The notes under the pieces were generated by a model. That model saw only the letters and a list, made by a program, of their open reading frames with translations. It was not told where the DNA came from and did not search any database. This document shows positions 2,214-31,153 of a stretch of DNA of 32,017 bases, piece after piece (positions within the stretch are counted from its first letter, which is position 1; every line of letters begins with the position of its first letter). Source of the DNA: a virus; the IMG/VR virus record IMGVR_UViG_3300010049_000008, positions 1 through 32,017 of that record. The stretch is one strand, 5' to 3'. A program made the translations under genes and the position numbers.

Positions 2214-2242
2214 ATTTTCACCACCTTATTAGTTGCAGAGGG

Positions 2243-2922: not shown

Positions 2923-2959
2923 TCCCCAACTTTTTCTTTATCTTTTTTTAATACGAACA

Positions 2960-3817: not shown

Positions 3818-3820
3818 CAC

Positions 3821-12488: not shown

Positions 12489-13687
12489 ACTTTTTGTCCT
12501 CCTATTCGGCCGCTGAAATCATGACCCGACGTCACCCGTAATAAACCAAGTTGTCTTAAGATTTGATTTGCCTGTGTGGTATAGTTAGCCCACTGTACGC
12601 CGTATTTCCCATCTTTGGGATACTGCACACGTAAATCTCCCAAACTGTAACTCTGCAAGACACCTCCGCTCCAAGCCGCTAACACTTTAAGCGCCGCTAA
12701 CATACTGCTAAGATGAGCAACATTAGTGGGAACAGTCGCATAGCCAAAAGTGTAGTCTACCTGAAATACTTTCATGCCGTTTACAAAGTTGCGGTAGAAT
12801 TGGATTTCACAGCGGGCCGGATAAACTTCATAATTCGCATCTGTGGGGCCGCCGTCTGCTGTTCTTCCCTCGATTGTGGGCCACCATTGGTTAGACTGCC
12901 AAAACGTCACATTATTAACTTGTACTAATGGAAAATTGTTTAGCAGAATTTGTCCCGGCGGCATCTCTAACAAGCGGTCATAAGTTTCAACTGTATCATG
13001 TAATCTGAAGTCATGTCCGCACCAGCCGTCAATAAACGCGTCCGCTTCCTCAATCATTGTTTGCGCTTGGGCTAAGGTGGGTTTGGTGGTGTCGGTGAAA
13101 GTGAAGCCTAACAAAGCTTGTAAATCTGCTATACTGCTGTAACTGTTTCCTATAGGGGTGGGAGGGTCGGTGTGCAGGGTGAGCAATTGAAAAGGCAGGA
13201 CTTCAGAAATCACTATAGCAGAATTCCAAGCCGCAGAATATTGCAAAAACATTTGACCGTTGCGCGATGCATCAGGAGAGGTACCTGTGGTGATAAACAT
13301 GTTTCCTGAACCGGGCGCAGTAGCATTCACAATAGCCACAAAATAGATAGAGCCGGAAACGGTTTGTACGGGGTTAGCAAAATCAAACTCTATCCATCCT
13401 GCCACGTTATTTATGGATTGCATCGCTATATTTACACTTGAACCCACAACAGTTTTGTTTTGGTCGAGTATTAGCATCTGCATTTGGCCTGTCTGATTAT
13501 TATTTTGGCGGCTGATAATCACCCGACCTTTATTAATTATGTCTCCGGTACCCATAAATTGTTGCGCTACGCCCGCATTATTTAGTGCGGTGCTGAGGTA
13601 TGCGGCCCCTAAGTTTTGAGTTGATGTGGGAGGATAGAGTATGATTTCATCTATGACGTCATATACTATTTCTATGGGTTCGGTCAT
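12485..13687 (-). CDS. Head-tail adaptor (gp6/gp15-like connector) with an extra N-terminal beta-rich domain, 400 aa
   Basis: The C-terminal half begins SSIADLQALLGFTFTDTTKPTLAQAQTMIEEADAFIDGWCGHDF, the usual opening of head-tail connector proteins. The N-terminal ~175 aa resembles the Tal N-terminal domain. Confidence 0.6.
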   Translation of the reverse strand: MTEPIEIVYDVIDEIILYPPTSTQNLGAAYLSTALNNAGVAQQFMGTGDIINKGRVIISRQNNNQTGQMQMLILDQNKTVVGSSVNIAMQSINNVAGWIEFDFANPVQTVSGSIYFVAIVNATAPGSGNMFITTGTSPDASRNGQMFLQYSAAWNSAIVISEVLPFQLLTLHTDPPTPIGNSYSSIADLQALLGFTFTDTTKPTLAQAQTMIEEADAFIDGWCGHDFRLHDTVETYDRLLEMPPGQILLNNFPLVQVNNVTFWQSNQWWPTIEGRTADGGPTDANYEVYPARCEIQFYRNFVNGMKVFQVDYTFGYATVPTNVAHLSSMLAALKVLAAWSGGVLQSYSLGDLRVQYPKDGKYGVQWANYTTQANQILRQLGLLRVTSGHDFSGRIGGQKV

Positions 13688-13691
13688 GTTA

Positions 13692-13901
13692 TCAGCCTAT
13701 CTTTTTTTTCAGAGTTTTATCTGGGATGTATTGTGCGGGATTTGGTTTGGTGACTTCTTTTATTGTTACGGGCGCGGCGGGTTGATTGTATAGTTTGTCT
13801 CGGATGTCTAAGAGAACTTCCAGCATTGCACGGTTAGTGTCTAATTTTGTGAAATAATTCGGGCTATCAATTGCCGCTATAATTTCTTGTTTGGTACGCA
13901 T
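13692..13901 (-). CDS. Hypothetical protein, 69 aa (MRTKQEIIAAIDSPNYF...)
   Basis: Track ORF 13692..13910 trimmed to the first ATG. A CTTTTTAAG box (13930..13938) lies 37 nt upstream. Confidence 0.5.
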   Translation of the reverse strand: MRTKQEIIAAIDSPNYFTKLDTNRAMLEVLLDIRDKLYNQPAAPVTIKEVTKPNPAQYIPDKTLKKKIG

Positions 13902-13939
13902 AACAATCAAAAATAGTAAGTAACTTGTGCTTAAAAAGG

Positions 13940-14224
13940 TTACATTTGACTTTGTAACAACGCTAAACGGTTCGCTACCGACTGTTTACTTACCAGATGC
14001 GGGTTGGGTAAGTCGGCTTGGATGTTAGGCAGTGGAATGTTAGGTTTCTTTGCCAGTGCTTGAATTAAGGGTGCGTCTAAGGCGGCTTGTGCATTGAAAT
14101 TGTCGCCAAAAGCATGGAATATTCCTTCTTGATTGAGTGGGTTAAGTATGCATTTGTTACAGTTTCGATTAGATTTATAGGTGCATATGTCGCAGGTGCC
14201 TGCTGTTGGTTTAGGAGTTGACAT
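13940..14224 (-). CDS. 94-aa Cys-rich protein (MSTPKPTAGTCDICTYKSNRNCNKC...)
   Basis: Track ORF 13940..14323 trimmed to ATG 14224, downstream of the capsid stop at 14271. The first 18 nt are 17/18 identical to the start of the chaperone gene. Confidence 0.5.
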   Translation of the reverse strand: MSTPKPTAGTCDICTYKSNRNCNKCILNPLNQEGIFHAFGDNFNAQAALDAPLIQALAKKPNIPLPNIQADLPNPHLVSKQSVANRLALLQSQM

Positions 14225-14256
14225 CAGAAAAATAAAAGGTTGAATGAAATAAAAAG
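14225..14256 (-). promoter_or_regulatory. CTTTTTATTTC box 32 nt upstream of ATG 14224 (possible leaderless or short-leader promoter)
   Basis: The minus strand reads CTTTTTATTTCATTCAACCTTTTATTTTTCTG-ATG. The box and spacing match those upstream of the chaperone gene. Confidence 0.35.
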
Positions 14257-14270
14257 ATTGTGGTAGACTG

Positions 14271-15317
14271 TTAACCAGTCTGTAGAAGTGTGACAGCTTC
14301 AGCAACGATTTTAGCGGGTGCACCGATAACGCTGGTGGTAACGTAAAAGCCTACATCTACTCCCCATCGTGTCATTTCACTGGATACGTCGCGGATTTGG
14401 GCCCATCCAATAGCCTCGTCAGCTTGCAATACTGCGCCAAGATTTGCGCCAGAGGTTGCAGGTGCGGTTGGAGCATATACAGCATCACTGAATATTTTCA
14501 TACCGAAGATTTCAGAGATTGCGCCAGACTTCACATAGCTATCCAATGCACTGGTAAATTGCACAGAGGTGATGTTGTTCATGATAAACGGATAGAATCC
14601 GAATGCACCTGTAGCATCGACTGGGAAGGTTTGGAATACATCAGCACGAAAACGTTGTCTTTCAACTTGGCCTCTTGCGGCAAGTAGATTGGCAAAGGTA
14701 TAGTTTGCGCCTGCGGCTGTGGTTTGAATGTTGGTGTTAGCGTTTGGTGTTGCGGTTGTGGTGTCGTTTACTGCGGCATAGATGTTAGCGTTTATTGCGG
14801 CATTCAACACGTTGCCGTGCAGGACACCGACAGTCTGAGCCAAGTTATAAGCCAATTGACGTTGCAGTTTGTCTTCGATGAAGGTGCTGACTGGTAGAGT
14901 GACGGTTTTTGCTTGAATTTCATATAGTGAGAGGTTTAGGGGTGCTACACCATTTGGGGGCATGGTGCCTTGTCCGTTATAGGGTTGAACTGCAGTGCCG
15001 CCTAAGCTGAGTGGTAGCCAGCCTGCTGGGGGTTTCGCGTATTGCCAGCCATAATTCACACCAGTGCCCTCGGGCATGAGTTCTGTTCGGCAGTAGGCGC
15101 GTGCGTCGATGAGTGTGGCGAGTTGGACTGCGGCGCGTGCGGCAACCATGTATGGGAATGCGGCACCGGGAGTTTGAGTGTTCATTTGTTTAATTGGTGC
15201 GATCATGGGGTTTGCGGCGTCTGTTACAAGCATGGAACCATATTTTTCGGCGAGTGTGTCAAAGGATTGCTCTATTTTTTTAGACCATGGATATTGTTTA
15301 ATGTTTCTTTGACTCAT
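14271..15317 (-). CDS. Major capsid protein (HK97-fold expected), 348 aa
   Basis: Immediately downstream of the protease-scaffold gene, with size typical of a delta-domain-less MCP and its own TTTTTTAACTTC promoter. The call rests on position and composition. Confidence 0.75.
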   Translation of the reverse strand: MSQRNIKQYPWSKKIEQSFDTLAEKYGSMLVTDAANPMIAPIKQMNTQTPGAAFPYMVAARAAVQLATLIDARAYCRTELMPEGTGVNYGWQYAKPPAGWLPLSLGGTAVQPYNGQGTMPPNGVAPLNLSLYEIQAKTVTLPVSTFIEDKLQRQLAYNLAQTVGVLHGNVLNAAINANIYAAVNDTTTATPNANTNIQTTAAGANYTFANLLAARGQVERQRFRADVFQTFPVDATGAFGFYPFIMNNITSVQFTSALDSYVKSGAISEIFGMKIFSDAVYAPTAPATSGANLGAVLQADEAIGWAQIRDVSSEMTRWGVDVGFYVTTSVIGAPAKIVAEAVTLLQTG

Positions 15318-15396: not shown

Positions 15397-16698
15397 TTAG
15401 GGGTTGGCACCCATTAGGGCCGCCATAACTGCACCAATATCCCCATTATACTGGATGAGGAGTTCACGTGCATTCTGTTCTACACCGCGTGCCCGCTTAA
15501 CATTGGGGCCTGACCCGGTTTCTGCTGTTGGGCTGGTTTGTTTAGCATCGGTTCGGGTGGGGACTAAGTCAGGGTTCGCGTTTGGTATGGTGCCCGCATC
15601 TGCGCCCGCTTCAACTTGTTTAGCTTGCTCGTATCCACCGGTGTTGGGGCCGCCCATAGTTGGAGGACAAGTAACATTAGCGGGAGTCCAAGTACCCTCC
15701 TGATATTTACCACGGAATTTACGTTCAGCCGCCATAAGAATCTCTTGGGGTGTACGGTTCTGTTTTAGCGACTCTTCTTGTTCTTCTTCCTCTTCACCTT
15801 CGCCCTCTTCCCCCTCTTCTTCTTCGGTTTCAACTTCTACAGTAGTGATGTTGACTTCGACAGATTCTTTAGGTTTTTTCTTCTCTTTCTTTTGCTTCTC
15901 CTCTTCCTCTTCTTCCTCGTCTTTGTCGTCCGCTTCTTCTTCCTCCTCCTCTTCATCTTTAGCTTCTTCTTTGGATTTCTTTTTCTTAGCGGCCTCTTTA
16001 GATTTCTTGGTTTTGGTTTCTTCTTCTTCTTCTTCTTCTTCTTCTTCTTCTTCTTCTTCTTTGGCGGCTTGTTTTAGGGGTTTGCATGTTGGGCATCCGC
16101 ATTCTGCGACGTGTACGGGTTGGAGTTTAGCCATCATAGCTTCCAATATTTTTAGTTTCGCGTCAAAAGTTTCATCTATACGTTTCATGGCTGATTCATA
16201 TATGCGAGTTGATTTTTCGCTGTCTCTGAGGCTTTGGGTGATACGTGATATTTCAGTCATGGCCGCCTGTTCAATTGCCGGGAAAGGTGTGATGCTTAAT
16301 TCTTCGGGGTTGAATTCGATAATCATTTCTTTCCCGTCTGCGGTTAGTACCATTGGGCCGTTACCGCCGACAGAAACACCCATCAACATTTTAGGCTTAC
16401 CGTTCTCGCCGCTCATTTTTTCGAAAAGGGATTCGTGAAGCAAGCCGCGGCCAGACAACCAAAGACCATCAACAGTTTGACCCAACGCATTTTTTCCTGT
16501 ACCATATTCTGCGGATTCCACAACACCCGCAACATCACGAGACCCAAAGCCGTGGTCTAACATGAGGGGTTTTCCGGGGTACTTTGGTGCGGCGTCCATT
16601 AATGTTTTTTCGTTCCAGATATAGCCGTTGCGCGACTCGGTTGGGTAAGCCGCGAAAGCTTTCCAATTGAAATATGCATTACCTTGTTTATCTGCCAT
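15397..16698 (-). CDS. Prohead protease (HK97 / S78-like) fused to a coiled-coil and highly acidic scaffold domain, 433 aa
   Basis: PLMLDHGFGSRDVAGVV, LMGVSVGG and EELSITPFPAIEQA match the landmarks of HK97-family prohead proteases. A coiled coil and a ~100-aa Glu/Lys tract follow. Confidence 0.8.
   Translation of the reverse strand: MADKQGNAYFNWKAFAAYPTESRNGYIWNEKTLMDAAPKYPGKPLMLDHGFGSRDVAGVVESAEYGTGKNALGQTVDGLWLSGRGLLHESLFEKMSGENGKPKMLMGVSVGGNGPMVLTADGKEMIIEFNPEELSITPFPAIEQAAMTEISRITQSLRDSEKSTRIYESAMKRIDETFDAKLKILEAMMAKLQPVHVAECGCPTCKPLKQAAKEEEEEEEEEEEEEETKTKKSKEAAKKKKSKEEAKDEEEEEEEADDKDEEEEEEEKQKKEKKKPKESVEVNITTVEVETEEEEGEEGEGEEEEEQEESLKQNRTPQEILMAAERKFRGKYQEGTWTPANVTCPPTMGGPNTGGYEQAKQVEAGADAGTIPNANPDLVPTRTDAKQTSPTAETGSGPNVKRARGVEQNARELLIQYNGDIGAVMAALMGANP
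16018..16059 (-). repeat. Perfect (GAA)14 trinucleotide microsatellite inside the scaffold domain
   Basis: The plus strand reads ttc x14 without interruption and encodes a poly-Glu run. Further imperfect GAA/GAG/AAG runs extend down to about 15770. Confidence 0.9.
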
Positions 16699-16741
16699 TA
16701 TGAATTCACAATAAAAATAAGAGGTTGGGAAGTTTAAAAAG
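16699..16741 (-). promoter_or_regulatory. Late-type promoter: TTTTTAAACTTC box 42 nt upstream of the protease-scaffold ATG
   Basis: The minus strand reads CTTTTTAAACTTCCCAACCTCTTATTTTTATTGTGAATTCATA-ATG. It shares CTTATTT..GTGAAT with the tail tube promoter. Confidence 0.5.
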
Positions 16742-16756
16742 AAAAGAAATTAAGAG

Positions 16757-17290
16757 TTAGAATGTGTCTAATAGGTTCTGAATATCCGACCAATTCACAA
16801 CTTGTACTGCAGTCACTTCTACCGCTTTAGGATATTTGGCTAATACCGCGTTTTTAGCTTCTTCGAGCGTCATCCCCATTTTGTATTCAGTGAGTATATA
16901 GTATCCGAAAAGTTTCTTGATTCGGCAGGTGACTTCTATACATACATCCAAATTTGCTATTGTGTCTTTGAACTGTGTTAAGCGTTTTTGGATTTCAAGT
17001 AGCCCGGTGATTTGGGTTTCTAATTCTGTTATTTTTTCTGTTGCTTGGCTGTATAGTATGGCGTTTGGACATTCGGGTTTTTCATTGATGGCTTCAGTAT
17101 ATATTTTTGGAGGTAAGGTTTTTCGGTAGGGATATTTATGGTTTTTAATGCGACTTATAAGAGTTGAGCTTATTTTCACGTTCCAAAGTTTCATAATTTG
17201 ACTTTGGATACCGTATATTGGTTTATTTTTGTTTTTTGGGAATTGGATATAGTTTATAATTTCGGGGGTTAACTTTTTGTTTGCAACCAT
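16757..17290 (-). CDS. HTH DNA-binding protein, 177 aa
   Basis: The N-terminus LTPEIINYIQ...GIQSQIMKLWNVKISSTLISRIK looks like a resolvase/transposase-type helix-turn-helix, with a coiled-coil middle. No catalytic motif seen. Confidence 0.55.
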   Translation of the reverse strand: MVANKKLTPEIINYIQFPKNKNKPIYGIQSQIMKLWNVKISSTLISRIKNHKYPYRKTLPPKIYTEAINEKPECPNAILYSQATEKITELETQITGLLEIQKRLTQFKDTIANLDVCIEVTCRIKKLFGYYILTEYKMGMTLEEAKNAVLAKYPKAVEVTAVQVVNWSDIQNLLDTF

Positions 17291-17399
17291 GTTGATTACC
17301 TAAACCAAACTTAACGCGATACTCATACATAAGCATTATGATACCCAACACAATAATAAAGAAAGAAAAGAGTAAATTAAACAGGAGGTCGTAGTTCAT
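17223..17399 (-). CDS. 58-aa ORF with one hydrophobic helix (MNYDLLFNLLFSFFIIVLGIIMLMYEY...)
   Basis: Hand-translated and below the cutoff. Its 3' third overlaps gene 16757..17290 in another frame, which lowers confidence. Confidence 0.25.
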   Translation of the reverse strand: MNYDLLFNLLFSFFIIVLGIIMLMYEYRVKFGLGNQHGCKQKVNPRNYKLYPIPKKQK

Positions 17400-17489
17400 G
17401 ATATCCTACTCCGTCGTCCAGTAACTCACCGTCTTGCCGTCTCTTAATCTGCGCAAGTAACCGTTGTTGTTTTCTTTTTCGATTAGGGT

Positions 17490-17636
17490 TCACTGTTTTG
17501 CGGCCCGTTTCGGTTTCCCACCCTTCCAATGTGATTCTTCAGGTACACCGGGGTTACACTCATTACAGATATACTCATATTCTTCATCTGTAGAGGTGAG
17601 GTAGCGAAATATGCAGGTGTGGCAGTTTTCACCCAT
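17490..17636 (-). CDS. 48-aa zinc-ribbon micro-protein (MGENCHTCIFRYLTSTDEEYEYICNECNPGVPEESHWKGGKPKRAAKQ)
   Basis: Hand-translated. CxxC(16)CxxC pattern. Its ATG overlaps the upstream stop (ATGGGTGA). It displaces track ORF 17483..17671, which lies in another frame. Confidence 0.5.
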   Translation of the reverse strand: MGENCHTCIFRYLTSTDEEYEYICNECNPGVPEESHWKGGKPKRAAKQ

Positions 17637-17808
17637 TTAGTTTGAACCTTCCTTGTCGCATTAGTTTCCACGTGTTTATTTGGGTTTGCCAGCAGGTACG
17701 GTACATTTCTCCATCAGGCCCTACCTCTAATTTACAGTGGTTGCAGACGCAAGTAGAGGGGCGGGTGTCGAGTTTTTCATTTTTGCAGTTATGGCATGAG
17801 GCTAACAT
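17629..17808 (-). CDS. 59-aa zinc-ribbon micro-protein (MLASCHNCKNEKLDTRPSTCVCNHCKLEVGPDGEMYRTCW...)
   Basis: Hand-translated codon by codon, one residue below the track cutoff. CxxC...CxCxxC pattern. Its ATG overlaps the upstream TAG (ATGTTAG). Confidence 0.55.
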   Translation of the reverse strand: MLASCHNCKNEKLDTRPSTCVCNHCKLEVGPDGEMYRTCWQTQINTWKLMRQGRFKLNG

Positions 17809-18095
17809 GTGTGTTCATCCGCTCTTAGTTTCTGCGGGCAACGTGTCCATATGGCTGGGTTGGCGAAGCATCCGGGTGTACAACTGGTTCTTTGGGTTTC
17901 TGCATTACATTGTCTGATAATTCGGAATTGTGCGGGGTTCATGCGGCCGGCGTAGGGACAATAGTTTTGAGTGTTCTCTTCTTCATCGTTGACGGGTTTG
18001 CGGTTGGGTGGGGGAAGAATAGATTCTACTCCCCGTTCAGTTTGTTGTTTTAGTTCGAAGGTTTTGAAGGTGTTGCGTGGGTCAGAGGTAGTCAT
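17802..18095 (-). CDS. 97-aa Cys-containing protein (MTTSDPRNTFKTFELKQQ...)
   Basis: Track ORF 17802..18137 (GTG start) trimmed to ATG 18095, which overlaps the end of the upstream 38-aa ORF. Confidence 0.5.
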   Translation of the reverse strand: MTTSDPRNTFKTFELKQQTERGVESILPPPNRKPVNDEEENTQNYCPYAGRMNPAQFRIIRQCNAETQRTSCTPGCFANPAIWTRCPQKLRADEHTC

Positions 18096-18198
18096 TGGGT
18101 CGGGCCTCGAATTGAGATTTTCGGAAACAGCATTCACAGCGAAATTGACTTAGTTGATGGTGTTTGCAGTTAGCACAAGTTTTAGCTGTGTCGGTCAA
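18082..18198 (-). CDS. 38-aa zinc-ribbon micro-protein, TTG start (MTDTAKTCANCKHHQLSQFRCECCFRKSQFEARPNDYL)
   Basis: Hand-translated. GAGGAA 6 nt upstream, the TTG overlaps the upstream TGA (TTGA), and the pattern is CxxC...CxCC. Confidence 0.4.
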   Translation of the reverse strand: MTDTAKTCANCKHHQLSQFRCECCFRKSQFEARPNDYL

Positions 18199-18392
18199 GG
18201 GGGGTTCCTCGTGTATATGCTGGCGGTTTGGTAGGTTCCGTTTAGGAAGTTGTTGAGGTGTTCTTTTTTTATGTATCCGATGCCTTTGTATTTTCCTGTT
18301 TGTGGGTCTTTCATTACTACGTTTATGTAGCTGTTGTTGGTTTGGTTTTGGCTGATGAATCCTATTCCGTCACTTTTAGTTTGGTTACTCAT
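18195..18392 (-). CDS. Hypothetical protein, 65 aa
   Basis: Track ORF with ATGA-type 4-nt overlap to the upstream gene at 18389..18392. Confidence 0.55.
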   Translation of the reverse strand: MSNQTKSDGIGFISQNQTNNSYINVVMKDPQTGKYKGIGYIKKEHLNNFLNGTYQTASIYTRNPP

Positions 18393-18739
18393 GTTGTTAT
18401 CTCACCTTCACATAACTTATGTAGTTTTCGTATAGATTGCGCTACACTGTGGTCAACCAGTTTTAGGCGTTTTTCAGCATCACGGTTTCCCGTGGTGATG
18501 TTGAGCCACTCCGAACCTAAGAGAAATACGTGTCCCATTTCTAAGGCTAAGTTTTTTTCAGATGCTTCGACCTTATCATTTGTGGAGGCATATTTTATGG
18601 CGCGGATGTAGTGTGATACTGCTAAGGCCGCTTCGGTTAATTCTTCTTGCAAGCGTTCTAAGCGTTCTACTTCCGTATATTTAGCGGTTACCGCAAATAA
18701 TACGTTTATTTCAGGTAAACTGTTTATTATTTTTACCAT
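18389..18739 (-). CDS. Hypothetical all-helical protein, 116 aa; weak MazG-like NTP-pyrophosphohydrolase resemblance
   Basis: LQEELTEAALA (EExxE) followed by LALEMGHVFLL resembles the two-helix metal-binding pattern of MazG-like proteins. The second motif has His where Asp is usual, so this is tentative. Confidence 0.3.
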   Translation of the reverse strand: MVKIINSLPEINVLFAVTAKYTEVERLERLQEELTEAALAVSHYIRAIKYASTNDKVEASEKNLALEMGHVFLLGSEWLNITTGNRDAEKRLKLVDHSVAQSIRKLHKLCEGEITT

Positions 18740-19626
18740 TAAGTTTCATTCTCCTCTCTTAATTCATCTATACATATCTGGCAGAAACAACCTCCTCCTA
18801 CAACAGGCTGGTTGTGGATTTGGCACCATTTCGCTGGGTTCTTCATGTCCTCGGCTGTGGGGATTTGGGGTGCGCCTTTATCGTGTTCGAGGCAGTCAGG
18901 GCGTACTTTAGGTGTTTCTTTTCCATAGAATGATTGGTTTTGTTCTTCGGTGTTTCCGGGGGGCTGAATATTGGGTGTTGTGGTGGCTACGGTGTCTTTT
19001 GTCCATGTTTCTTCTGCACGTTTATATTGCTCTACTACTTTGGCAGGGGCTTGTTTGGCGGGTATTTTGTAATCAGCTAATGTTTTTTTTGGGTTGTAGG
19101 TTGCGGGTGGTGTGGCTTCGGGTTCAGACTGAGATTCAGCAGTAGGGGCGGGAGTTGTTACGGTGATGTCGTCGGGGTTGAGGTGCATAATGTTTTCTTC
19201 CTGTTTCAGATAAGCGTTAATCATAGATGCTATGAAGTCTGCGGGAAGAATCTTCATAAAAGCATTTCGCTCAGCCTTATTCACACATTGTTCAAATGCG
19301 AAGGGTTTATGTTTCTCCTGTTCCTTAGCGCCTAACACGTCAATGTTGTTTTCGCCGTCATGTATCTGTACTATTACGCGGTAGGTTTTTTCTGTTTCTA
19401 AGAATTGGTGGCTGGTGATGGTTACGTTTTTGCGGCGTCGTATGACTTCTTTTACACCGGCGTAGCTTAGGCATGATACTTCTCGGCCTCCTTGTTTTAT
19501 GACGTATACGTATTTTTTTAGGAGGTGGGTTTGTCCTTCCATTTCGGCCAAGATTTGTGCGTCATCTTGTCGGTCAAAGGTTTGGCAGTCTTGGGTTGTG
19601 GGTTTGTTTGTTAATTCGGTTGTCAT
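18739..19626 (-). CDS. 295-aa protein of unknown function; possible DNA-metabolism role
   Basis: A globular N-terminal ~150 aa (..LSYAGVKEV..., ..CVNKAERNAFMKILP..), a Thr/Pro/Glu-rich linker, and a C-terminal CQIH...CFCQIC knuckle. The largest non-structural gene. I could not place it in a family. Confidence 0.6.
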   Translation of the reverse strand: MTTELTNKPTTQDCQTFDRQDDAQILAEMEGQTHLLKKYVYVIKQGGREVSCLSYAGVKEVIRRRKNVTITSHQFLETEKTYRVIVQIHDGENNIDVLGAKEQEKHKPFAFEQCVNKAERNAFMKILPADFIASMINAYLKQEENIMHLNPDDITVTTPAPTAESQSEPEATPPATYNPKKTLADYKIPAKQAPAKVVEQYKRAEETWTKDTVATTTPNIQPPGNTEEQNQSFYGKETPKVRPDCLEHDKGAPQIPTAEDMKNPAKWCQIHNQPVVGGGCFCQICIDELREENET

Positions 19627-19691
19627 GTTTTCACATTCATCATGTTGTTTAATTTTATGTGATGTTTACAGTGTTTGTTGTGGTATTTAAA
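19627..19691 (-). promoter_or_regulatory. Promoter cassette P8 with micro-uORF: TTTAAATAC-N12-cTGTAAACAT-N9-TTAAACAAC-ATGATGAATGTGAAAACATGA
   Basis: TATA-like box at 19683..19691 (minus strand) and a 9/10 copy of the operator at 19662..19670. AACAACATG opens a 6-codon uORF whose TGA overlaps the gene ATG at 19626. Confidence 0.45.
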
Positions 19692-19762
19692 CCTTGCACT
19701 TACATAACCGCTTACATAACTGGTATAGTTTTTATTATGTCGTGCACCAGTTTACCAATAGT

Positions 19763-19809
19763 TTTATATATTCGTTTGCTATATGTAAACATATAGGAAG
19801 AACAACAAC
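19763..19809 (+). promoter_or_regulatory. Promoter cassette P5: TTTATATA-N8-CTATATGTAAACATATAG-GAAGAACAACAAC-ATG
   Basis: TATA octamer at 19763..19770, 18-nt palindrome at 19779..19796 (8-nt arms), and ATGTAAACAT at +21..+30 from the TATA start. Divergent from P8. Confidence 0.5.
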
Positions 19810-20007
19810 ATGACCACACAAATAACCAAAGAACGTAAAATTGAATTAATTGCACAAGCTGAAAATATTCATCGACAAGCCTTCAAACTATACTGTGACT
19901 TAGGAGAGGCAGAGGTTGGAGTTAAAATTGACAGCCAAGTTGCAAAAATCAGCCAACTTTTAAATAAAATTGTTAAAGACCTGAAAGCTCTGGAAGTTAA
20001 TAAATGA
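19810..20007 (+). CDS. 65-aa helical protein; first gene of a plus-strand island
   Basis: Track ORF with AACAACATG start context and its own promoter. Confidence 0.6.
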   Translation: MTTQITKERKIELIAQAENIHRQAFKLYCDLGEAEVGVKIDSQVAKISQLLNKIVKDLKALEVNK

Positions 20008-20144
20008 CCCTAACAGAACTTAACACCCTTTTCCAACAATATGAAGCCAAAATAGAAAAAGAATACACAGGATACCAGAAAGACCTGCAGAAACAGAGTT
20101 TAGCACGCTGGTTCTACGCCGAAAAAAAGAAGCTGGGACTCTAA
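20004..20144 (+). CDS. 46-aa helical micro-protein (MTLTELNTLFQQYEAKIEKEYTGYQKDLQKQSLARWFYAEKKKLGL)
   Basis: Hand-translated. ATGA overlap with the upstream stop. Its TAA is interleaved with the stop of the convergent gene 20141..20863. Confidence 0.45.
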   Translation: MTLTELNTLFQQYEAKIEKEYTGYQKDLQKQSLARWFYAEKKKLGL

Positions 20145-20863
20145 GCCTCCATATCTTCCGGCTTAACATCTTTGGGCACCCGCAACAGCGGCCCCCGCTC
20201 AGGTGTTACCAATCCAGTGTCTTCGGGGCTGTTCTGCTTAGAGGGCGTGTTTCCTTTCGGGAAAGTTTTTCTTGTACCGTAGGGAGACTCCACATCAATC
20301 CTATTAAGTTTAACCCACTTCTTGAACATGTATTCTCCGTGAGCAATGGTTTCGCCGTTGAAAACTGCTTGTTTCTGAAACGCTTTCTGAATCCGCTTAA
20401 TATCATCACTATAAGTTTTACGCTGATGTATTTTATTTGAGAAAGAGTAATCACCGGGGTTTTTCTTAATCAAGTCTATTTCTGGAGTTTTTAGTGGGTC
20501 AGGAGGTGAGAGACTGCCCCAATCGAAGCTGTAGGGGTCAAGGTCTTCGGCAGGTTCCAATAATTTCGCTAAGCTGTCCGGGGTATATTCTCCCGCTTTC
20601 ACCACAAGCATGCAACGGTCGTGAGGATGTACCATTGGGAATATAAGTTCATCATCATGCTCAATCTTTTCGGGGAACTGCCCATTCACTTCCATCATCG
20701 ACATAATTGATGCGTTGTATTGTTCACAATCTTCACAAGTCTTTTCATCCGCTACAGCAACATACATCCACCAGCGGGAAGCCTGCACAATCCCCCGTAA
20801 CTGCAAGATTTTCAATTGGTCGCTGACTCGAAAAGCCATAAAGGGAGGGAGAACTGATGACAT
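20141..20863 (-). CDS. Minor head / head morphogenesis protein (Mu F / SPP1 gp7-like domain), 240 aa
   Basis: VADEKTCEDCEQYN ... FPMVHPHDRCML fits the D-x-x-T-C-x-x-C ... HP-x-x-R-C signature of the Mu F family. Immediately follows the portal with TAATG overlap. Confidence 0.7.
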   Translation of the reverse strand: MSSVLPPFMAFRVSDQLKILQLRGIVQASRWWMYVAVADEKTCEDCEQYNASIMSMMEVNGQFPEKIEHDDELIFPMVHPHDRCMLVVKAGEYTPDSLAKLLEPAEDLDPYSFDWGSLSPPDPLKTPEIDLIKKNPGDYSFSNKIHQRKTYSDDIKRIQKAFQKQAVFNGETIAHGEYMFKKWVKLNRIDVESPYGTRKTFPKGNTPSKQNSPEDTGLVTPERGPLLRVPKDVKPEDMEA

Positions 20864-22458
20864 TAGCTTACACGTGTTAAGATTGTTTTACCGTCCTTAA
20901 TTTCTGTTGCCCACGATTCAGCTTGAGTTCCCGCTACGTTTGAGGAGTCGCGTAAGGTGGGTTTGGTGTTTCCTTCGTACAGGGTGCCTTCGGCGGCGTC
21001 TTCGGGTAGCTGGAGTTGTTCTCTTACGGTTTCTGCATCAATTACCCCCGCCATAAACAATTCAAGCAGAGGCCTTGTGAGCGCGGTTAGGTCGGCGGTG
21101 ACTATGGGTTTGAATCGGAATTCTAAGCCGGGGCCAATCCACTGCTTAATTAACTGCTCGTTTATGAGGTCTTCTATGGCTTGCTGGTGAGCTTTCACGT
21201 TGTTTGTGAGAACTTCAAACTTTAGGCCGCCCCACTTAATTTCTCCCTGATTATTTCCTTGCGGGTCAAGAAGAGAACTGGGTACACCCAAACCAAGTAA
21301 TACACGTTCTTTCCAGATGTTTATTAGTTCGGCTATTCCGCGTATTTGACCCTCATTTTTATAAATCTGCTCAATGGTGGTGAATATATCAGTGTATATG
21401 TCGCTGGTTGGGGGAAGAGCAGTCATCTGGGCTTTCCATTTTTGGAACCCGTCCGCAGGCGCAAAGATTGTGTCTTCTACGCCTGATTGTTTCATGTTCC
21501 CGCCATACTTTAGCTGTAGCCTGACATCTGCTCTTTTCTGTACGATAGCTGGCAGATATTGAATCATGAGCAGGTAAGCTTTGAGCGTGTAATATACTTC
21601 TTTGAATGAACTGTAACCATATATGCCTCCAGCCATGTTGTTAAATTTCAATTGATAAATCTGCTCACGATGCAAATAAATATCAGTATACGCCGCAGAT
21701 AAACCCGCCTCTATACTGGAGATGTTCTGTTCCCACGCACGCTGTATGTATGCGTCTGTTTCTATTTCTGCTAATTTCTTGTTGAACATAGATGGATTTT
21801 TTATTACTCGCATGGTTCGTGGGTCAAGTTTTTTGAGACCGTAGAACTCGGTGGCGGGCACCCATTTTATAAGGGTGCGGGCGGCGGCTAACTGAGCCGC
21901 ACCGACAGCTGTGGGAGCGGATTGGTTATTAGTCCACGTGGCCCGGCTGTTATCATTACTTTCGCAGTATCCATTTCCATAAACTATTGCGTCATGCGTC
22001 ATTTCTTTAAATTTGGCTTCTAACTTTTTGTTGTTCCATAATTCCATAAACTTTTCTTTAAGTTTAGTGTCTTTTTTGTCTGCAACAATTAAGTTAAAGC
22101 CATTTTTCCAAACTAAGTTAACGTAAAGTTTAACCATGAATGAGGCTTCAGGACAATTAGCCCGGGTCTGGATATAGTCCCAATAGAACGCCCAGTCATC
22201 CGGCCACCCGAACTGAGGATTATACACACCAAGCGGAAGTAAAGTTTGAGCTTGAGCTATGTCCGCTTGTGTAATTCTTCTACTCGCCAAGGTTGCCGCT
22301 GAAATTCCGGGAGCAAAATAAGCGTCTTTCCCATCAATATTCACACCGGTACCCATCACTCTGTAGGTGTTTTCTTCGCTGAAAGCCGGCAGTTTATTAT
22401 CCCCATAGGCTTGGGCATTGGGAGTTTGTTTGGCTATTACTTTGAAAGGATTGCGCAT
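20863..22458 (-). CDS. Portal protein, 531 aa
   Basis: Size and canonical position, 4 nt downstream of TerL and upstream of the Mu F-like gene. Confidence 0.8.
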   Translation of the reverse strand: MRNPFKVIAKQTPNAQAYGDNKLPAFSEENTYRVMGTGVNIDGKDAYFAPGISAATLASRRITQADIAQAQTLLPLGVYNPQFGWPDDWAFYWDYIQTRANCPEASFMVKLYVNLVWKNGFNLIVADKKDTKLKEKFMELWNNKKLEAKFKEMTHDAIVYGNGYCESNDNSRATWTNNQSAPTAVGAAQLAAARTLIKWVPATEFYGLKKLDPRTMRVIKNPSMFNKKLAEIETDAYIQRAWEQNISSIEAGLSAAYTDIYLHREQIYQLKFNNMAGGIYGYSSFKEVYYTLKAYLLMIQYLPAIVQKRADVRLQLKYGGNMKQSGVEDTIFAPADGFQKWKAQMTALPPTSDIYTDIFTTIEQIYKNEGQIRGIAELINIWKERVLLGLGVPSSLLDPQGNNQGEIKWGGLKFEVLTNNVKAHQQAIEDLINEQLIKQWIGPGLEFRFKPIVTADLTALTRPLLELFMAGVIDAETVREQLQLPEDAAEGTLYEGNTKPTLRDSSNVAGTQAESWATEIKDGKTILTRVS

Positions 22459-22461: not shown

Positions 22462-23910
22462 TTATGACCCGCTTACATAACTATTGGGTGCTGTTTTGTT
22501 TATAAGCTTATTTTCAGCTCCCCCCACATTAGAGCTTGGTGCACGCACACCCCTAAACACATTCTCACAGAGTAACACTACGGCATCAACGGCGTCGTCG
22601 TGAGCATCTTTGGGAAAACTTACCCATTGCTGGGTAAATAATGAGTCTCTAAGTGCTGGATTGATAAGCACTCTCATGGCTTCGAAGTGAGCACTTGCCA
22701 CCGTAAAACGTATCTCCTTATTTGTGTGGGTGTGTACGGGGACGATGGGGTAAGTGGTGCCGTTGGGGTGGGTTCTGAAGTTGGCATGTTTTATCAATAT
22801 TTTCTGCATGAAATTGGCCTCAACATACATTTTTAATGGATTATATTTTTCAAATTCGTTTGGCAGATGAGCTGATAATATTTCAAAATAATCCTTATGT
22901 TCTGCCCATACATTATAGAGATATAACCTATTCTGAAACGCCGAATAACCCCCCGTGGCTATTGCAAAGTAGTCATTTTCTCCTCCTGCTGGGTCAATTG
23001 CCATATATGGTTTTATGTCGGTGGGTGTGTAGGGGCTTAAGTTTGGCTGGGTTGTATCCCAATAATGAAGCCACTCCGCTTTTAGCATATCACCCGTGGC
23101 GGGCAACGGCTGGTTTATATATTGGTTAAAGAATTTGATTGTGCCCAAATCATTTTTACGTTCTAAAAGGGCTTCGATGGGCCAGACTTCCGGCCACAAC
23201 ACTTGAGCGGGTTCACGGCCTGCAAAGTAGGCCTCGCTGTTTTTGATGGCGCTTAAACTTTGAGACGGCCATCCTAAACCATTCTCCGATTTGGGGTTTA
23301 TGAGATTACTGTATAGGTCGTTATTGTGCCATCGGGAACCTATCACAATTATTGCGCCTGTGCTAAACATTGTGGGGAGCAACGCCTCACGAAACCAATC
23401 AAACGCCTTATTTCTTTGGAGTTCGGTGCCGACATTCTCTACATCTATTATGTCGTCACAAATGATGAGGTCAAATCCCTGTCCCGTCAGATTTCCCGAA
23501 CCGTATAGGCCCGAGGCGCTTAGGGTGGGAAATTTACTTATCTGTTTTCGTTCTAAGGTGAAAGCGTTATCGTTCCATTGTTGTGGGTTATCTGGTTTTA
23601 GATTACCAAATACTTCTATGTGACGTTTATCAAATTCAATCCTGCGCCGAACAGCTTTCAAAGTATTAGTAGCCAGAGTGTCAGTTTTTGAGGTTATTAA
23701 TGCGTGTAATTCTGGGAACCGGGAGATTATCCAGCTTAAACAATTAATTGCAAAAACTTCTGATTTAGCATGTTTTCGAGGGCCAAGAAAAACATATTTC
23801 TTGAGCGCCTGCTTATGGTCGGGGAGGGGGCTTATGTGGTTCTGGTTGTTTTGGGGAGAAAATAGGTTATACCAATAGTTTTGATAATCAGCTATGTTTT
23901 GGTAACCCAT
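22462..23910 (-). CDS. terL: Terminase large subunit, 482 aa
   Basis: Walker-A-like FLGPRKHAKS, Walker B FDLIICDD, and C-terminal nuclease acidic motifs MAIDPAGG and HDDAVDAVV. Confidence 0.9.
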   Translation of the reverse strand: MGYQNIADYQNYWYNLFSPQNNQNHISPLPDHKQALKKYVFLGPRKHAKSEVFAINCLSWIISRFPELHALITSKTDTLATNTLKAVRRRIEFDKRHIEVFGNLKPDNPQQWNDNAFTLERKQISKFPTLSASGLYGSGNLTGQGFDLIICDDIIDVENVGTELQRNKAFDWFREALLPTMFSTGAIIVIGSRWHNNDLYSNLINPKSENGLGWPSQSLSAIKNSEAYFAGREPAQVLWPEVWPIEALLERKNDLGTIKFFNQYINQPLPATGDMLKAEWLHYWDTTQPNLSPYTPTDIKPYMAIDPAGGENDYFAIATGGYSAFQNRLYLYNVWAEHKDYFEILSAHLPNEFEKYNPLKMYVEANFMQKILIKHANFRTHPNGTTYPIVPVHTHTNKEIRFTVASAHFEAMRVLINPALRDSLFTQQWVSFPKDAHDDAVDAVVLLCENVFRGVRAPSSNVGGAENKLINKTAPNSYVSGS

Positions 23911-26332: not shown

Positions 26333-26471
26333 TTTTATTTGTCCATCCATCACATTTACCCATTTTATCACGAAGTAAATCAAAGCCACCCATAACAAAA
26401 CAGACAACTTTCACATCTCCCCATTCTTGGGAAGGCTTGCTGAATTTACAATTCTCACAAGTTTCACTCAT
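26325..26471 (-). CDS. 48-aa zinc-ribbon-like micro-protein (MSETCENCKFSKPSQEWGDVKVVCFVMGG...KCDGW)
   Basis: Internal ATG of track ORF 26325..26510, with ATGA overlap to the upstream 55-aa ORF. Confidence 0.45.
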   Translation of the reverse strand: MSETCENCKFSKPSQEWGDVKVVCFVMGGFDLLRDKMGKCDGWTNKNE

Positions 26472-26635
26472 GGCAATACCCTCGTTTCTTTGTTTCCGCA
26501 TATAGTACAAGCAATTATTATTTTCGATGTTGGTGGCCCAAAAATATAAAAAAAGACCACATCAGGATTTGATGATTTACAAAAGTCACATTTAAATTTA
26601 AATTGCTTGAACTCAAGATAGCCGTTCGATGTCAT
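26468..26635 (-). CDS. 55-aa zinc-ribbon micro-protein (MTSNGYLEFKQFKFKCDFCKSSNPDVVFFYIFGPPTSKIIIACTICGNKETRVLP)
   Basis: Hand-translated codon by codon and below the cutoff. CxxC(23)CxxC pattern. ATGA overlaps at both ends. Confidence 0.5.
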   Translation of the reverse strand: MTSNGYLEFKQFKFKCDFCKSSNPDVVFFYIFGPPTSKIIIACTICGNKETRVLP

Positions 26636-26985
26636 GGTTTCTCACTGTTGATTATGTGTTGTATGTCGAGTAATAGCGCTAAATAAACGTGTGGTTCAGT
26701 TTTTTCAGTTAGATTGTAATCTGAGATATCTTTGGCGATTAGTTTTAGTTTTGCGTCTGCGTTTGGCCTATAACATTCTTGTGGTTTTTGGTGCATGGTT
26801 GAGTATGATTCTTGACTGCAACTATACGTATTGCGGTATTTGCATGATTTGCATAAATCTTCTGGTTGTTTTTGTTTATAGTTACTTTTGAACCTGTCTG
26901 GATTAACGTTTAATGCACACATTAAACAAGATGTGCTGGTATTGCAGGGGCCGTGTGTACAGGTTTCACAAGATTCATTAATCAT
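26632..26985 (-). CDS. 117-aa Cys-rich protein
   Basis: Track ORF with CETCTHGPC...CLMC...CKSCKYRNTYSC clusters and ATGA overlap with the upstream gene. Confidence 0.6.
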   Translation of the reverse strand: MINESCETCTHGPCNTSTSCLMCALNVNPDRFKSNYKQKQPEDLCKSCKYRNTYSCSQESYSTMHQKPQECYRPNADAKLKLIAKDISDYNLTEKTEPHVYLALLLDIQHIINSEKP

Positions 26986-27671
26986 AAAAAACCCTCAAGC
27001 TCTGATATAGTTTTATTCAATTTTAATTTTTCTTGGTGCAAACGGTCTATTTCTTCATATAATGCTCTATTTTCTCTGCGTATACTATCTATGAGGTTAT
27101 TTCTTTCGTTTATTGTAGTTTGGGAAACGTTCCAGCCTGTTTTATATTCCTTAAGTTCTCGTTCAAGCTGTACACATCGGTCATGATAAGGCATATCTTG
27201 AGGTGATGTACGTTTAAGAGGTTTGCTTAATCGTTCATTTTCTAACCATAGATTATGATAGTCTTGTTCTAATAATTCATTTTGTGTTTTTAACTTCTTA
27301 TTTTCATCTTTAGCCTGTTGTAGTTGGAAAACTAATGCAGTGAGTCTTTCACCCATATAATCAGCATAATTACTCACCCCTTTTTGGGCCGGATTCAAGT
27401 AACGCTCCATAATAATTCTTACGAATTGAACTTGAAATTGTTCCTGCAGGTAAGTTTGTAGTTGTGTTATGATTTCAATTTGAGTTTTTGCATTAATATT
27501 TATTTTAAGCGTAAATGGGTATTTTTGGTCTATAAACTCTGACTCAAATCTTGAGGATGAGATGTAGTTATCTTTTATATGATTTTTGGTGTCATAACAG
27601 TTATGGCATTTTATCCAGAAATCTTTAACTGAATAATAACAATCATCACAAGGGACATATTTAGTATTCAT
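26982..27671 (-). CDS. 229-aa protein: N-terminal CxxC..CxxC finger plus long coiled coil
   Basis: Track ORF with PCDDCYYSVKDFWIKCHNC followed by about 150 aa of heptad-like charged sequence. Confidence 0.65.
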   Translation of the reverse strand: MNTKYVPCDDCYYSVKDFWIKCHNCYDTKNHIKDNYISSSRFESEFIDQKYPFTLKININAKTQIEIITQLQTYLQEQFQVQFVRIIMERYLNPAQKGVSNYADYMGERLTALVFQLQQAKDENKKLKTQNELLEQDYHNLWLENERLSKPLKRTSPQDMPYHDRCVQLERELKEYKTGWNVSQTTINERNNLIDSIRRENRALYEEIDRLHQEKLKLNKTISELEGFL

Positions 27672-28872: not shown

Positions 28873-29144
28873 GCTTTCCTTCAGACGACGAAATTAAAAA
28901 ATGGTGATATATCCTACTCCGCTACCCGCGTGAAGCTAAAATGAAGAAATACCGTAAACACCAGTTTGGAGACCTTACGCCAACATGAAAACGTAAGATT
29001 GTTTTTGCGGTGCATCACAGGCAATCATCACCACCCAATAACAAGTATACAGGAATATAAATGTTAATAAAATGGCGGCTGGCTACAGCCATAACGCACC
29101 AATATACACGGCGTTTATAACCACATATACATGGATTTTGTCCC

Positions 29145-29400
29145 ATATTTTAGCTCTAAGGGGCGAGCGTCATCGTTGAGGGATAGCTTCAGCCGTTAAT
29201 CATAGCGGGCTTGGAGGCCCGTTCTTATAGCGCAAGCGGCAACTCACTATCACTTATTTCGACTTGACTGATAGCCCGGTTCATATGTGGACACTATCAG
29301 CCATTCCCGACAATCCGGCAGGGATTGACGAGCTTAACCAAGATACTTTCAGCGGTAACCGTCACAAGCCTTACGAGGGCAAGCCGTCATTACATGATTT
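29145..29400. ncRNA. Candidate structured non-coding RNA (visibly G+C-richer island inside the control region)
   Basis: Local hairpins: AGCGGGC/GCCCGTT (29204..29223), CTGATAG/CTATCAG (29268..29300) and CAATCC/GGATTG (29310..29326). TTTATAA at 29114..29120 could serve as a TATA box for plus-strand transcription. Strand and ends are unknown. Confidence 0.2.
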
Positions 29401-29567
29401 CTCTATATCTGCACTCCTACGCAAATAGTAAGTTTGCGTTAATTGCCACAATTGATTAAGCATACCCTAATAGGTGAAAGTCATAATTAAAGTTATCTGA
29501 AATCAACCAAAACAACATTTTTGTTGTAGAGGCAAAGTTTCCGTTTTTCTATTCAACCAATGACTTA

Positions 29568-29610
29568 GGGTTAACGGGGTTAAAGAGGTTTAACCCCGTA
29601 AGGGGTTTTT
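29568..29610 (+). promoter_or_regulatory. Cluster of GGGGTTAA boxes forming two mutually exclusive hairpins
   Basis: H1 pairs ACGGGGTTAAA (29574..29584) with TTTAACCCCGT (29589..29599). H2 pairs AACCCC (29592..29597) with GGGGTT (29602..29607) around a GTAA loop, followed by a T run. Confidence 0.5.
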
Positions 29611-29841
29611 GAGTATTATAGTTTAGCGTTTTTTAGAGGGAGAAAAAGAAAAGTTAAGAAAGTTAAAGTTATTAATAGTATATATACTACTACTATCTAC
29701 ATTTACTTTTACTTTTACTTACAAGTAATACAATCGATACTTACACAACATCATATTTAAGGCTTTCCCAACAAACAATCAGGTGATTAGGGTGGATTTT
29801 TGGGTGCTGGAAAAAGTGTTTTATTGTTTTTCGCTTAGAAA

Positions 29842-29868
29842 GTTTAACCCAGTTAACCCCGTTAACCC
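29842..29868. repeat. Three tandem GTT(T)AACCC(C) boxes, inverted relative to the 29568..29584 boxes
   Basis: GTTTAACCC a GTTAACCCC GTTAACCC. Together with the upstream G-strand boxes they bracket a ~230-bp A/T-rich stretch containing (TTTTAC) repeats. Confidence 0.7.
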
Positions 29869-30999: not shown

Positions 31000-31153
31000 A
31001 AGAATTTTCTCGGAGACTTACCTAAAAGGCCTGACGTGGATAAAATTACTAAATCTCAAAGCAGGTTATGAGTGCCAGCGGTTATTGCCTCCTCCAGAGA
31101 TCCAAGAGGAAATAGCGCGGAGAATAGGTGAGATAAATGGCAAAACAAGATAA
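30989..31153 (+). CDS. Possible 54-aa ORF with TTG start
   Basis: Hand-translated (LSVERIFSETYLKGLTWIKLLNLKAGYECQRLLPPPEIQEEIARRIGEINGKTR). GGAGG 8 nt upstream. It fills an otherwise empty gap and overlaps both neighbours. Confidence 0.25.
   Translation: MSVERIFSETYLKGLTWIKLLNLKAGYECQRLLPPPEIQEEIARRIGEINGKTR

Follow-up and report, generated by a model that had tools for sequence, protein, structure and literature searches.

The virus genome catalogued as IMG/VR record IMGVR_UViG_3300010049_000008, whose positions 1 to 32,017 make up the stretch of 32,017 nucleotides (nt) analysed here and called the window, carries at 17490-18198 on its minus strand a tightly packed series of tiny genes, of which three encode proteins of 38, 59 and 48 amino acids with a pattern of two cysteine knuckles (Cys4), and we call these genes g38, g59 and g48, each name giving the encoded length in amino acids, as also in g295, g116, g65, g97, g58, g177 and g433. 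Our best explanation, which we hold to be probable as a whole, is that they are real Cys4 micro-genes, that they are translationally coupled, and that their products would be zinc knuckles serving as interaction modules and encoded in a lineage-specific cassette. Taken one by one, g59 and g48 are each very probably real genes, and g38 is rather likely to be one.

The chain of overlapping genes

The chain was worked out by reading the minus strand over 17300-18500, together with a listing of open reading frames (ORFs) of at least 25 amino acids. In this way the coordinates, the start/stop overlaps and the cysteine patterns that an earlier sequence-only reading had given for the five genes from g65 to g48 were all reproduced. 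All genes of the chain are on the minus strand, and the energies given here are for pairing of the Shine-Dalgarno (SD) motif with the 16S rRNA's 3' end. The gene g65 (18195..18392) encodes a basic protein of 65 amino acids without cysteines (SD AGGTGA, -8.5 kcal/mol). It is followed by g38 (18082..18198), which has a TTG start and the pattern C8xxC11…C21xC23C24 in 38 amino acids (SD GAGGA, -5.9 kcal/mol), and by g97 (17802..18095), with 97 amino acids and six cysteines, all of them in the C-terminal half (SD GAGG, -5.9 kcal/mol). The 59 amino acids of g59 (17629..17808) hold C5xxC8…C20xC22xxC25 plus C39 (SD-like GGATGA, -6.2 kcal/mol), and the 48 amino acids of g48 (17490..17636) hold C5xxC8…C24xxC27 and a basic disordered tail (SD AGGAAGG, -7.6 kcal/mol).

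The junctions between these genes are all overlaps. The TGA of g65 and the initiating TTG of g38 fall together in TTGA (4 nt), g38 and g97 overlap by 14 nt at ATG 18095, the TAG of g97 and the ATG 17808 of g59 share ATGTTAG (7 nt), and the TGA of g59 and the ATG 17636 of g48 lie together in ATGGGTGA (8 nt). The sequence-only reading proposed a chain of five genes; these stand as it gave them, but the operon is larger: it starts at g295, includes all genes down to g48 and probably extends as far as g177. Upstream, g295 (18739..19626) is the first gene of the cassette, with a strong coding score, a conserved N-terminal domain and a cysteine-rich C-terminus (WCQIH…CFCQIC). It overlaps the start of g116 by 1 nt (TAATG), and g116 (18389..18739; a helical protein with a positive coding score, called by an annotation pipeline; SD GAGGAG, -7.5 kcal/mol) in turn overlaps g65 by 4 nt (ATGA). 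The seven ORFs g295-g116-g65-g38-g97-g59-g48, with successive overlaps of 1, 4, 4, 14, 7 and 8 nt, thus tile 17490-19626 (2137 nt) with zero non-coding bases. All of them are co-directional and every start overlaps the stop before it, which is the arrangement of coupled gene pairs, and these overlaps suggest that translation of the seven genes is coupled.

Downstream of g48 there is a spacer of 90 nt, and then g58 (17223..17399), a pipeline-called gene for a single-pass membrane protein of 58 amino acids with the hydrophobic N-terminal segment LLFNLLFSFFIIVLGIIMLMY (SD GGAG, -7.1 kcal/mol). The last gene of the cassette is g177 (16757..17290), which has a positive coding score and an alternative start at 17194 that gives the pipeline version of 145 amino acids. 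A very basic ORF of 50 amino acids with a TTG start (17377-17529, minus strand) spans the spacer and reaches 40 nt into g48 and 23 nt into g58. It has a codon score of +10 bits, but its SD motif is badly positioned and it is in no pipeline's calls.

Start sites and coding potential

At every junction there is an SD-like motif 6-13 nt upstream of the start. The five starts proposed from g65 to g48 pair with -5.9 to -8.5 kcal/mol. Measured against 1600 background start codons each ranks in the top 5-15%, and none is weaker than the median for 18 well-supported genes (-5.7 kcal/mol). Two rival starts do much worse: GTG 17671 reaches -1.5 kcal/mol and GTG 18137, which would extend g97 to 111 amino acids, -1.6 kcal/mol. 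Because of this difference (-5.9 against -1.6 kcal/mol) ATG 18095 is favoured as the start of g97.

In a three-periodic Markov model, for which the long genes of the genome were the training set, g295, g116, g65 and g177 score clearly positive, with g65 having the highest score per nucleotide among the small genes, and the frame of g97 is the best of the six. The scores of g38, g59 and g48 are negative or ambiguous. The negative scores come entirely from the cysteine codons, which cost -2.4 bits (TGT) and -3.1 bits (TGC) each in codon log-odds, because only 30 of the 5222 training codons are for cysteine. When the cysteine codons are set aside, g38, g59 and g48 rise to +8 to +11 bits, or 0.18-0.21 bits per codon, on par with their neighbours and with the other Cys4 ORFs of the genome, and the alternatives on the plus strand stay negative.

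Probability of a chance origin

The sequence-only reading held that three such cysteine ORFs in one chain were unlikely to be due to chance, and this was borne out by shuffled sequences, by shadow ORFs and by a test on overlap chains. The Cys4 pattern was defined as CxxC-x6-25-C-x0-4-C in an ORF of at least 35 amino acids. It occurs in 0.23% of the ORFs after the entire minus strand has been shuffled with its dinucleotides preserved, and when the 903-nt stretch was shuffled the probability of at least one Cys4-pattern ORF was 0.0022, and at least two were found in 0 of 5000 shuffles. A harsher null is given by real out-of-frame shadow ORFs inside long genes, collected from the window and from nine further loci that were fetched (loci with related portals, and contigs with g295 homologues), of which 3 of 441 (0.7%) have the pattern. 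The window has three Cys4-pattern ORFs within 710 nt, and three among five neighbouring genes would under the shadow null have a probability in the order of 1e-6 to 1e-5.

In the chain test, ORFs of at least 38 amino acids were linked by stop/start overlaps in 2000 shuffles. Chains of three genes were seen in 0.7% of the shuffles and chains of four or five genes in none, and the longest coverage by a chain was 655 nt, against the 903-910 nt observed. The cysteine content of g38, g59 and g48 is 8-13%, compared to 0.34% in the long structural proteins (4087 residues). Small Cys4 ORFs are also more frequent than in shuffles in the genome as a whole, with 8 observed against 0.9 in the window, and the same is true for three related contigs, here called L002 (7 against 0.55), L007 (5 against 0.9) and L009 (7 against 1.6), an enrichment of 4-13 times. 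The proteins of g38 and g59 are weakly alike (p=0.002 in composition-preserving shuffles, BLASTP E=0.003), and this likeness hints at a local duplication, short of proof.

Public annotation and relatives

The same sequence is present in the European Nucleotide Archive (ENA) as a contig, L001, which is identical to the window over 7.6 kb. The ENA gene caller has found g295, g116, g97, g48, g58 and g177 in its version of 145 amino acids, and the two gaps it left, of 294 and 166 nt, are filled exactly by g65 with g38 and by g59. By exact look-up in the public protein sets, g65 is present in the IMG copy and is missing from ENA, and g97 (as 97 amino acids) and g48 are in all three of IMG, Logan and ENA. 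In none of these collections were g38, g59, the 111-amino-acid extension of g97 or the three competing ORFs found. The sequence-only reading described the operon as invisible; this holds in so far as the micro-genes fall below a cut-off of 60 amino acids and g38 and g59 are in no public set, but g97 and g48, and g65 in IMG, had been called already. The truly unannotated members are thus g38 and g59 only.

The searches for relatives were made at several levels. A word-indexed search of 5.8 billion proteins with g97 gave its self-match alone. An exhaustive HMMER search of 1.84 billion representatives with g59 gave three matches, all of which were rejected as repeat proteins aligned in 3-7 stretches, for instance with repeats of "LAVGPDGTLY" set against "LEVGPDGEMY". 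Metagenomes and genomes were scanned with back-translated patterns, and no relatives were found in IMG/VR (with g295, g97, g59 and g48), in the JGI metagenomes (g59 and g116) or in the GTDB genomes (g48 and g177). Neither blastn nor tblastn gave a match among the GenBank phages, and tblastn against the 15 fetched loci other than L001 gave no small-gene match below E ~0.05. Scans of all cassette proteins against Pfam, PHROGs, NCBIfam and PADLOC gave nothing above noise, and sequence searches of the PDB with g59, g48, g97 and g116 gave nothing real. The idea of g116 as a MazG-like protein was dropped, being unsupported by the family scans and the PDB search.

The only cassette gene with relatives is g295, for which there are about 60 proteins with 40-54% identity over some 130 N-terminal residues. 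The invariant positions of this family include D21, Q24, G57, K59, R120, N121 and P128, and it has the motif NKAERNAF..ILP; a profile of the homologues had no match in the PDB or Pfam. Four contigs with g295 homologues were fetched, and they have different downstream genes and no micro-genes were found there. Members of the family were seen on contigs that resemble archaeal mobile genetic elements, one of them beside an integrase and GmrSD.

Fold and zinc binding

A zinc ribbon, as a fold group in the classification of Krishna, Majumdar & Grishin (2003) as it is cited in PMC7911831, has two knuckles of the CxxC type that supply two ligands each, and these knuckles sit on beta-hairpins which make up a three-stranded sheet around the metal. 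Paired knuckles of this type are found in g48 and g59, and more loosely in g38, with its CxCC second knuckle. The zinc ribbons of the sequence-only reading are thus upheld in their cysteine spacing and unconfirmed as a fold, with AlphaFold2 (AF2) confidence (pLDDT, predicted local distance difference test) of about 66 and no zinc-ribbon match in Foldseek, and it is from the spacing that we infer the fold for the micro-proteins. The AF2 single-sequence models are all-beta: that of g59 has four beta-strands (pLDDT 66.7, predicted template modelling score 0.45), and that of g48 has one beta-hairpin (6-12, 20-26) flanked by the knuckles (pLDDT 66.0). These models are compatible with a knuckle-hairpin mini-domain without establishing one.

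A match of g48 to PRDM9 (E=1e-10) was rejected since this E-value adds up five or six matches to tandem C2H2 fingers, each of them of 5-10 bits and, taken singly, with an E-value of 6-270. As a C2H2 finger g48 was rejected too: C27 and H36 are separated by only eight residues, a second histidine at a correct distance is missing, and the spacing required is C-x2-4-C-x12-H-x3-5-H.

Genome context

An exact direct repeat of 123 bp is present at the two ends of the window (1-123 = 31895-32017), which means that the window is a complete genome of ~31.9 kb, either circularly closed or terminally redundant. Nearly all genes between ~3.8 and 28.8 kb lie on the minus strand, in agreement with the AT skew. 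Pfam identifies the terminase large subunit (22462-23910), the portal (20863-22458) and a MuF-like protein (20141-20863), and a protease/scaffold-like protein, g433, is encoded at 15397-16698 on the minus strand, with N- and C-terminal parts that are conserved in relatives. Its centre (residues ~210-310) is an extreme low-complexity region of poly-Glu/Lys, where L002 is rich in Ser and Ala. Clusters of cysteines are found in structural proteins as well, CEDC…HDRC in the MuF-like protein and CGCPTC in the protease. The style of overlap seen in the cassette also joins well-supported genes elsewhere in the genome, at 12485/12488, 20863 and 26982/26985.

The portal homologues are 34-48% identical, and one is from a metagenome-assembled genome (MAG) of Candidatus Bathyarchaeia. 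By way of the portal we arrived at seven distinct related contigs (within L002-L012, some in more than one copy), in which the MuF and protease genes are conserved. In the relatives the protease/scaffold homologue comes right after the MuF-like gene or is separated from it by one or two small, unrelated genes, and in the window and its closest relative, L002, several kb of unrelated small genes are inserted at this junction. Judged by this gene order the MuF-protease junction is an accessory-gene hotspot, and the cassette from g295 to g177 (16757-19626) is lineage-specific. In L002, which is from the same ENA sample, there are uncalled and non-homologous Cys4 ORFs in the same hotspot: an uncalled stretch of 1.2 kb (12863-14041) holds minus-strand Cys4 ORFs at 13013-13231 (72 amino acids), 13228-13476 (82 amino acids) and 13562-13969 (135 amino acids), the first two with a 4-nt overlap, and on the plus strand an uncalled Cys4 ORF of 39 amino acids (14585-14704) is squeezed in between called genes, sharing 4 nt with each of the two.

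The cassette begins after an AT-rich divergent intergenic region of 183 bp (19627..19809) with the TATA-like tracts aatatataaaac, ataataaaaac, ggtttaaatacc and cataaaattaaac. It is a candidate archaeal promoter region that would serve both the cassette on the minus strand and a pair of plus-strand genes at 19810-20144. This pair (19810-20007 and 20004-20144, plus strand; 65 and 46 amino acids, coiled-coil-like, 4-nt overlap, both called by ENA) diverges from the cassette within an otherwise minus-strand block. Directly after the stop of g177 there is an oligo-T tract, tttcttttcttttt (16736..16752, minus strand), a putative archaeal transcription terminator; oligo-T tracts terminate the archaeal RNA polymerase. 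It is followed by a TATA-like ttatttttatt about 15 nt upstream of the ATG of the protease/scaffold gene. Many of the genes that come first in an operon are nearly leaderless, and internal genes have SD motifs of the GAGG or GGTGA type, and leaderless first genes with internal SD motifs are a typical archaeal pattern. Scans for Rfam families, tRNAs, repeats and bacterial promoters and terminators gave nothing in the region, where a bacterial-type promoter scan is uninformative.

Other Cys4 (CxxC…CxxC) ORFs of the window are at 910-1041 and 31137-31307 on the plus strand and at 26468-26635, 26632-26985, 26982-27671 and 13940-14323 on the minus strand, and several of those in the genome are below 60 amino acids. 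The protein encoded at 13940-14323, beside the capsid gene, is conserved in L009 (15769-16068, E=3e-13), and this shows that Cys4 proteins are genuine products in this virus lineage. A plus-strand gene at 3003-3653 encodes 216 amino acids in which PF01841, the transglutaminase-like core domain, is recognised above its gathering score (E=1.7e-5), and it adjoins the gene for a tail-region protein of 1543 amino acids.

We propose that the cassette would be transcribed as one polycistronic mRNA from the AT-rich region to the oligo-T tract. A ribosome that ends one ORF could reinitiate at the overlapping start of the next, assisted by the SD-like motif inside the upstream gene. Each mini-protein would hold one Zn2+ by means of two cysteine knuckles 9-15 residues apart, connected as a hairpin, in the manner of a zinc ribbon or a rubredoxin knuckle. 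The micro-proteins could then be interaction modules that bind nucleic acid or protein, and be used in regulation or host take-over rather than in the building of the virion. For this role we argue by analogy with the CxxC proteins of archaeal viruses, AFV1p06, Brz and the µ-proteins of Haloferax.

Alternative explanations

There are several points that weigh against what we propose. No homologue of g97, g59, g48 or g116 was found, nor any of g38 or g65 in the fetched related loci, and because the small genes are without homologues they give no conservation, no ratio of nonsynonymous to synonymous changes (dN/dS) and no indel pattern. Over this region the two independent assemblies do not differ by a single base, and for that reason there is no selection signal from single-nucleotide polymorphisms either. 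The discrimination between frames on the same strand is weak, since 17483-17671 and 17377-17529 also score positively, and in the Markov model the former slightly beats g48. Among the micro-genes g38 is the weakest, with its TTG start and its atypical, non-canonical CxCC as second knuckle. The overlaps of 7, 8 and 14 nt exceed the classes of 1 and 4 nt for which coupling has been demonstrated. The AF2 models are of low confidence (pLDDT 66-67) and that of g59 leaves the first knuckle without structure, and Foldseek searches with g59 and g48 against the PDB and BFVD gave nothing with E<0.1 and no zinc ribbon. According to PMC11241148, some of the archaeal C(P)XCG mini-proteins bind no zinc, and the function of the micro-proteins is taken from analogy only.

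A first rival reading is that the genes are only those called by the pipelines, g65, g97 and g48, and that g38, g59 or both are untranslated, cysteine-rich spacers that happen to be open. Neither of the two is in any pipeline's calls and both have negative raw coding scores, frames that stay open for 38-59 codons are not rare on this T-poor strand, where stops are expected at ~4.7% per codon from base composition, and the ~90-nt spacer between g48 and g58 shows that spacers do occur in the cassette. To this could be added that g38 needs its TTG, and that homologues were not found. Such spacers would however have to contain a Cys4 pattern found in 0.2-0.7% of chance ORFs, and it is present in both of them and in the called g48 as well. 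They also have well-placed SD-like motifs and starts that overlap the upstream stops, their scores are positive without the cysteine codons, and they show the weak likeness to each other. We therefore regard it as unlikely that they are spacers. Still less can be said for the competing ORFs on both strands, which the sequence-only reading had pointed out and which do exist, at 17483-17671 (minus strand, 62 amino acids), 17642-17917 (plus strand, 91 amino acids) and 17971-18153 (plus strand, 60 amino acids). They are all open and at least 60 amino acids long, and the 62-amino-acid ORF scores slightly above g48 over the stretch that they share. The two on the plus strand, with their clearly non-coding scores of -12 to -20 bits, are antisense to an unbroken minus-strand block with a matching AT skew. 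The one on the minus strand has a GTG start without an SD motif (its -1.5 kcal/mol is in the bulk of the background), no cysteine motif and an overlap of 43 nt with g59, and g48 is preferred to it because of its ATG and SD motif, the overlap with the upstream stop, the Cys4 motif and the calls of three pipelines. None of the three is in the public protein sets, where g48 and g97 are found, and we hold it very improbable that these are the true genes.

The frame changes at each junction, and g38 and g59 look weakly paralogous, like tandem domains, which is what could be expected if one larger multi-zinc-finger gene had been split by frameshifts, be it as a pseudogene, by an assembly error or by programmed frameshifting. 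The independent assemblies are base-identical, though, each junction has an overlapping start and an SD-like motif that only separate cistrons would need, no larger homologue of g59 or g97 was found, and the overlap style is common to well-supported genes, and we find a broken gene hardly credible. A different question is whether the micro-proteins are real but belong to the virion or its assembly, as head-associated or packaged components. This is suggested by the position of the cassette within the morphogenesis block, with the MuF-like gene on one side and the protease/scaffold gene on the other, by the conserved Cys4 protein of another kind beside the major capsid gene and by the cysteine clusters of the structural proteins. 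But in the relatives the MuF gene is followed by the protease/scaffold gene directly or with unrelated genes between, so the cassette is dispensable for the virion, and it has an AT-rich upstream region and an oligo-T end of its own. The homologues of g295 are moreover in non-structural contexts, beside an integrase and GmrSD, and the HF1-group haloviruses have no small CxxC proteins in their assembly region (PMC7230728). A role in the virion thus seems to us to have only a small chance of being right, and we prefer real, coupled Cys4 micro-genes with a function outside the virion.

Comparison with known systems

Small CxxC proteins, virus-encoded, usually below 100 amino acids and with at least one CxxC, are a class known from archaeal viruses, and g38, g59 and g48 belong in it by these properties. 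In the haloarchaeal virus Hardycor1 there are three consecutive overlapping CxxC genes, HrrHc1_195/200/205 (29,114-29,867), with 4-nt overlaps (PMC7911831 Table 5), and Serpecor1 and Hardycor2 of the HF1-group have 21-23 CxxC proteins, most of them below 100 amino acids (PMC7230728, PMC7911831). The window has in common with them small proteins with CxxC-type motifs, mostly ORFans, that are encoded in overlapping co-directional runs by a tailed archaeal virus. It differs in that there is no homology, that the proteins are smaller still, at 38-59 amino acids, and that the host is probably from Bathyarchaeia and not from Halobacteria. The cassette is also located inside the morphogenesis block, a region where the HF1-group genomes carry no CxxC genes.

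The C(P)XCG µ-proteins of Haloferax volcanii (HVO_0758, HVO_2753) and Brz of Halobacterium have regulatory or interaction roles according to published accounts (PMC6562870, PMC10716476, PMC11241148, PMC2253796). They are like the micro-proteins of the window in being below 70 amino acids, with little beyond two cysteine knuckles, and unlike them in that g38, g59 and g48 are encoded by a virus. The six knuckles (CANCK, CECCF, CHNCK, CNHCK, CHTCI and CNECN) agree with the C(P)XCG proteins in size class and not in motif, as none of them has a glycine after the second cysteine or a proline after the first.

Termination-reinitiation that depends on gene overlap, and falls steeply with distance, has been demonstrated in Haloferax volcanii and E. 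coli (PMC6728339, PMC10666635). Compared to the gene pairs of Huber et al. 2019/2023, where the classes of 4 and 1 nt are the commonest by far, three of the six junctions here are longer, with 7, 8 and 14 nt.

The closest described virus of similar organisation is Fuxivirus ("Fuxiviridae"), a head-tailed virus of Bathyarchaeia with a genome of 31,982 bp and a CRISPR-Cas locus of type IV-B (PMC10848311). The window is alike in its ~32 kb and in the order terminase large subunit, portal, MuF, protease/scaffold and major capsid protein. One of the related contigs, L007, has a portal 45% identical to that of the window, and at 2172-5473 it has Csf1, Csf3 and a CysH-like PAPS (3'-phosphoadenosine-5'-phosphosulfate) reductase, a module that matches the Fuxivirus locus. 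None of the window proteins that were scanned was recognised as a type IV-B gene product, and the micro-gene cassette of the window is absent from L007. The virus of the window looks related to the "Fuxiviridae"-type viruses of Bathyarchaeia. The portal homologue in the Bathyarchaeia MAG and the Fuxivirus-like relative suggest an archaeal host, and the host of this tailed virus is probably a member of Bathyarchaeia.

What is described here is no new kind of system, as overlapping runs of small CxxC genes have been recognised in archaeal viruses before. A bolder thought is that g38, g97, g59 and g48 encode the subunits of one heteromeric multi-metal complex, a previously undescribed virus effector in a mobile cassette, because all of them are cysteine-rich and tightly overlapped and two may be paralogous; we consider it rather improbable. 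If it were true, the complex could for example be an anti-defence module, or one that targets the host polymerase or ribosome, in the head-gene hotspot of a Bathyarchaeia virus, and the hotspot would be a diversity-generating "zinc micro-protein island", with L002 carrying different Cys4 micro-genes there.

There is a lesson for annotation in this region, namely that gene callers and length cut-offs drop cysteine-rich micro-genes, and the same blind spot is seen in L002. The cost of ~2.4-3.1 bits for each cysteine codon is enough to turn real-looking genes of 38-59 codons negative. For the viruses of the Bathyarchaeia type, whose genes are very poorly annotated, the cassette contributes Cys4 mini-proteins that are ORFans, and points to the junction between the MuF and protease genes as a place where accessory genes are gathered.

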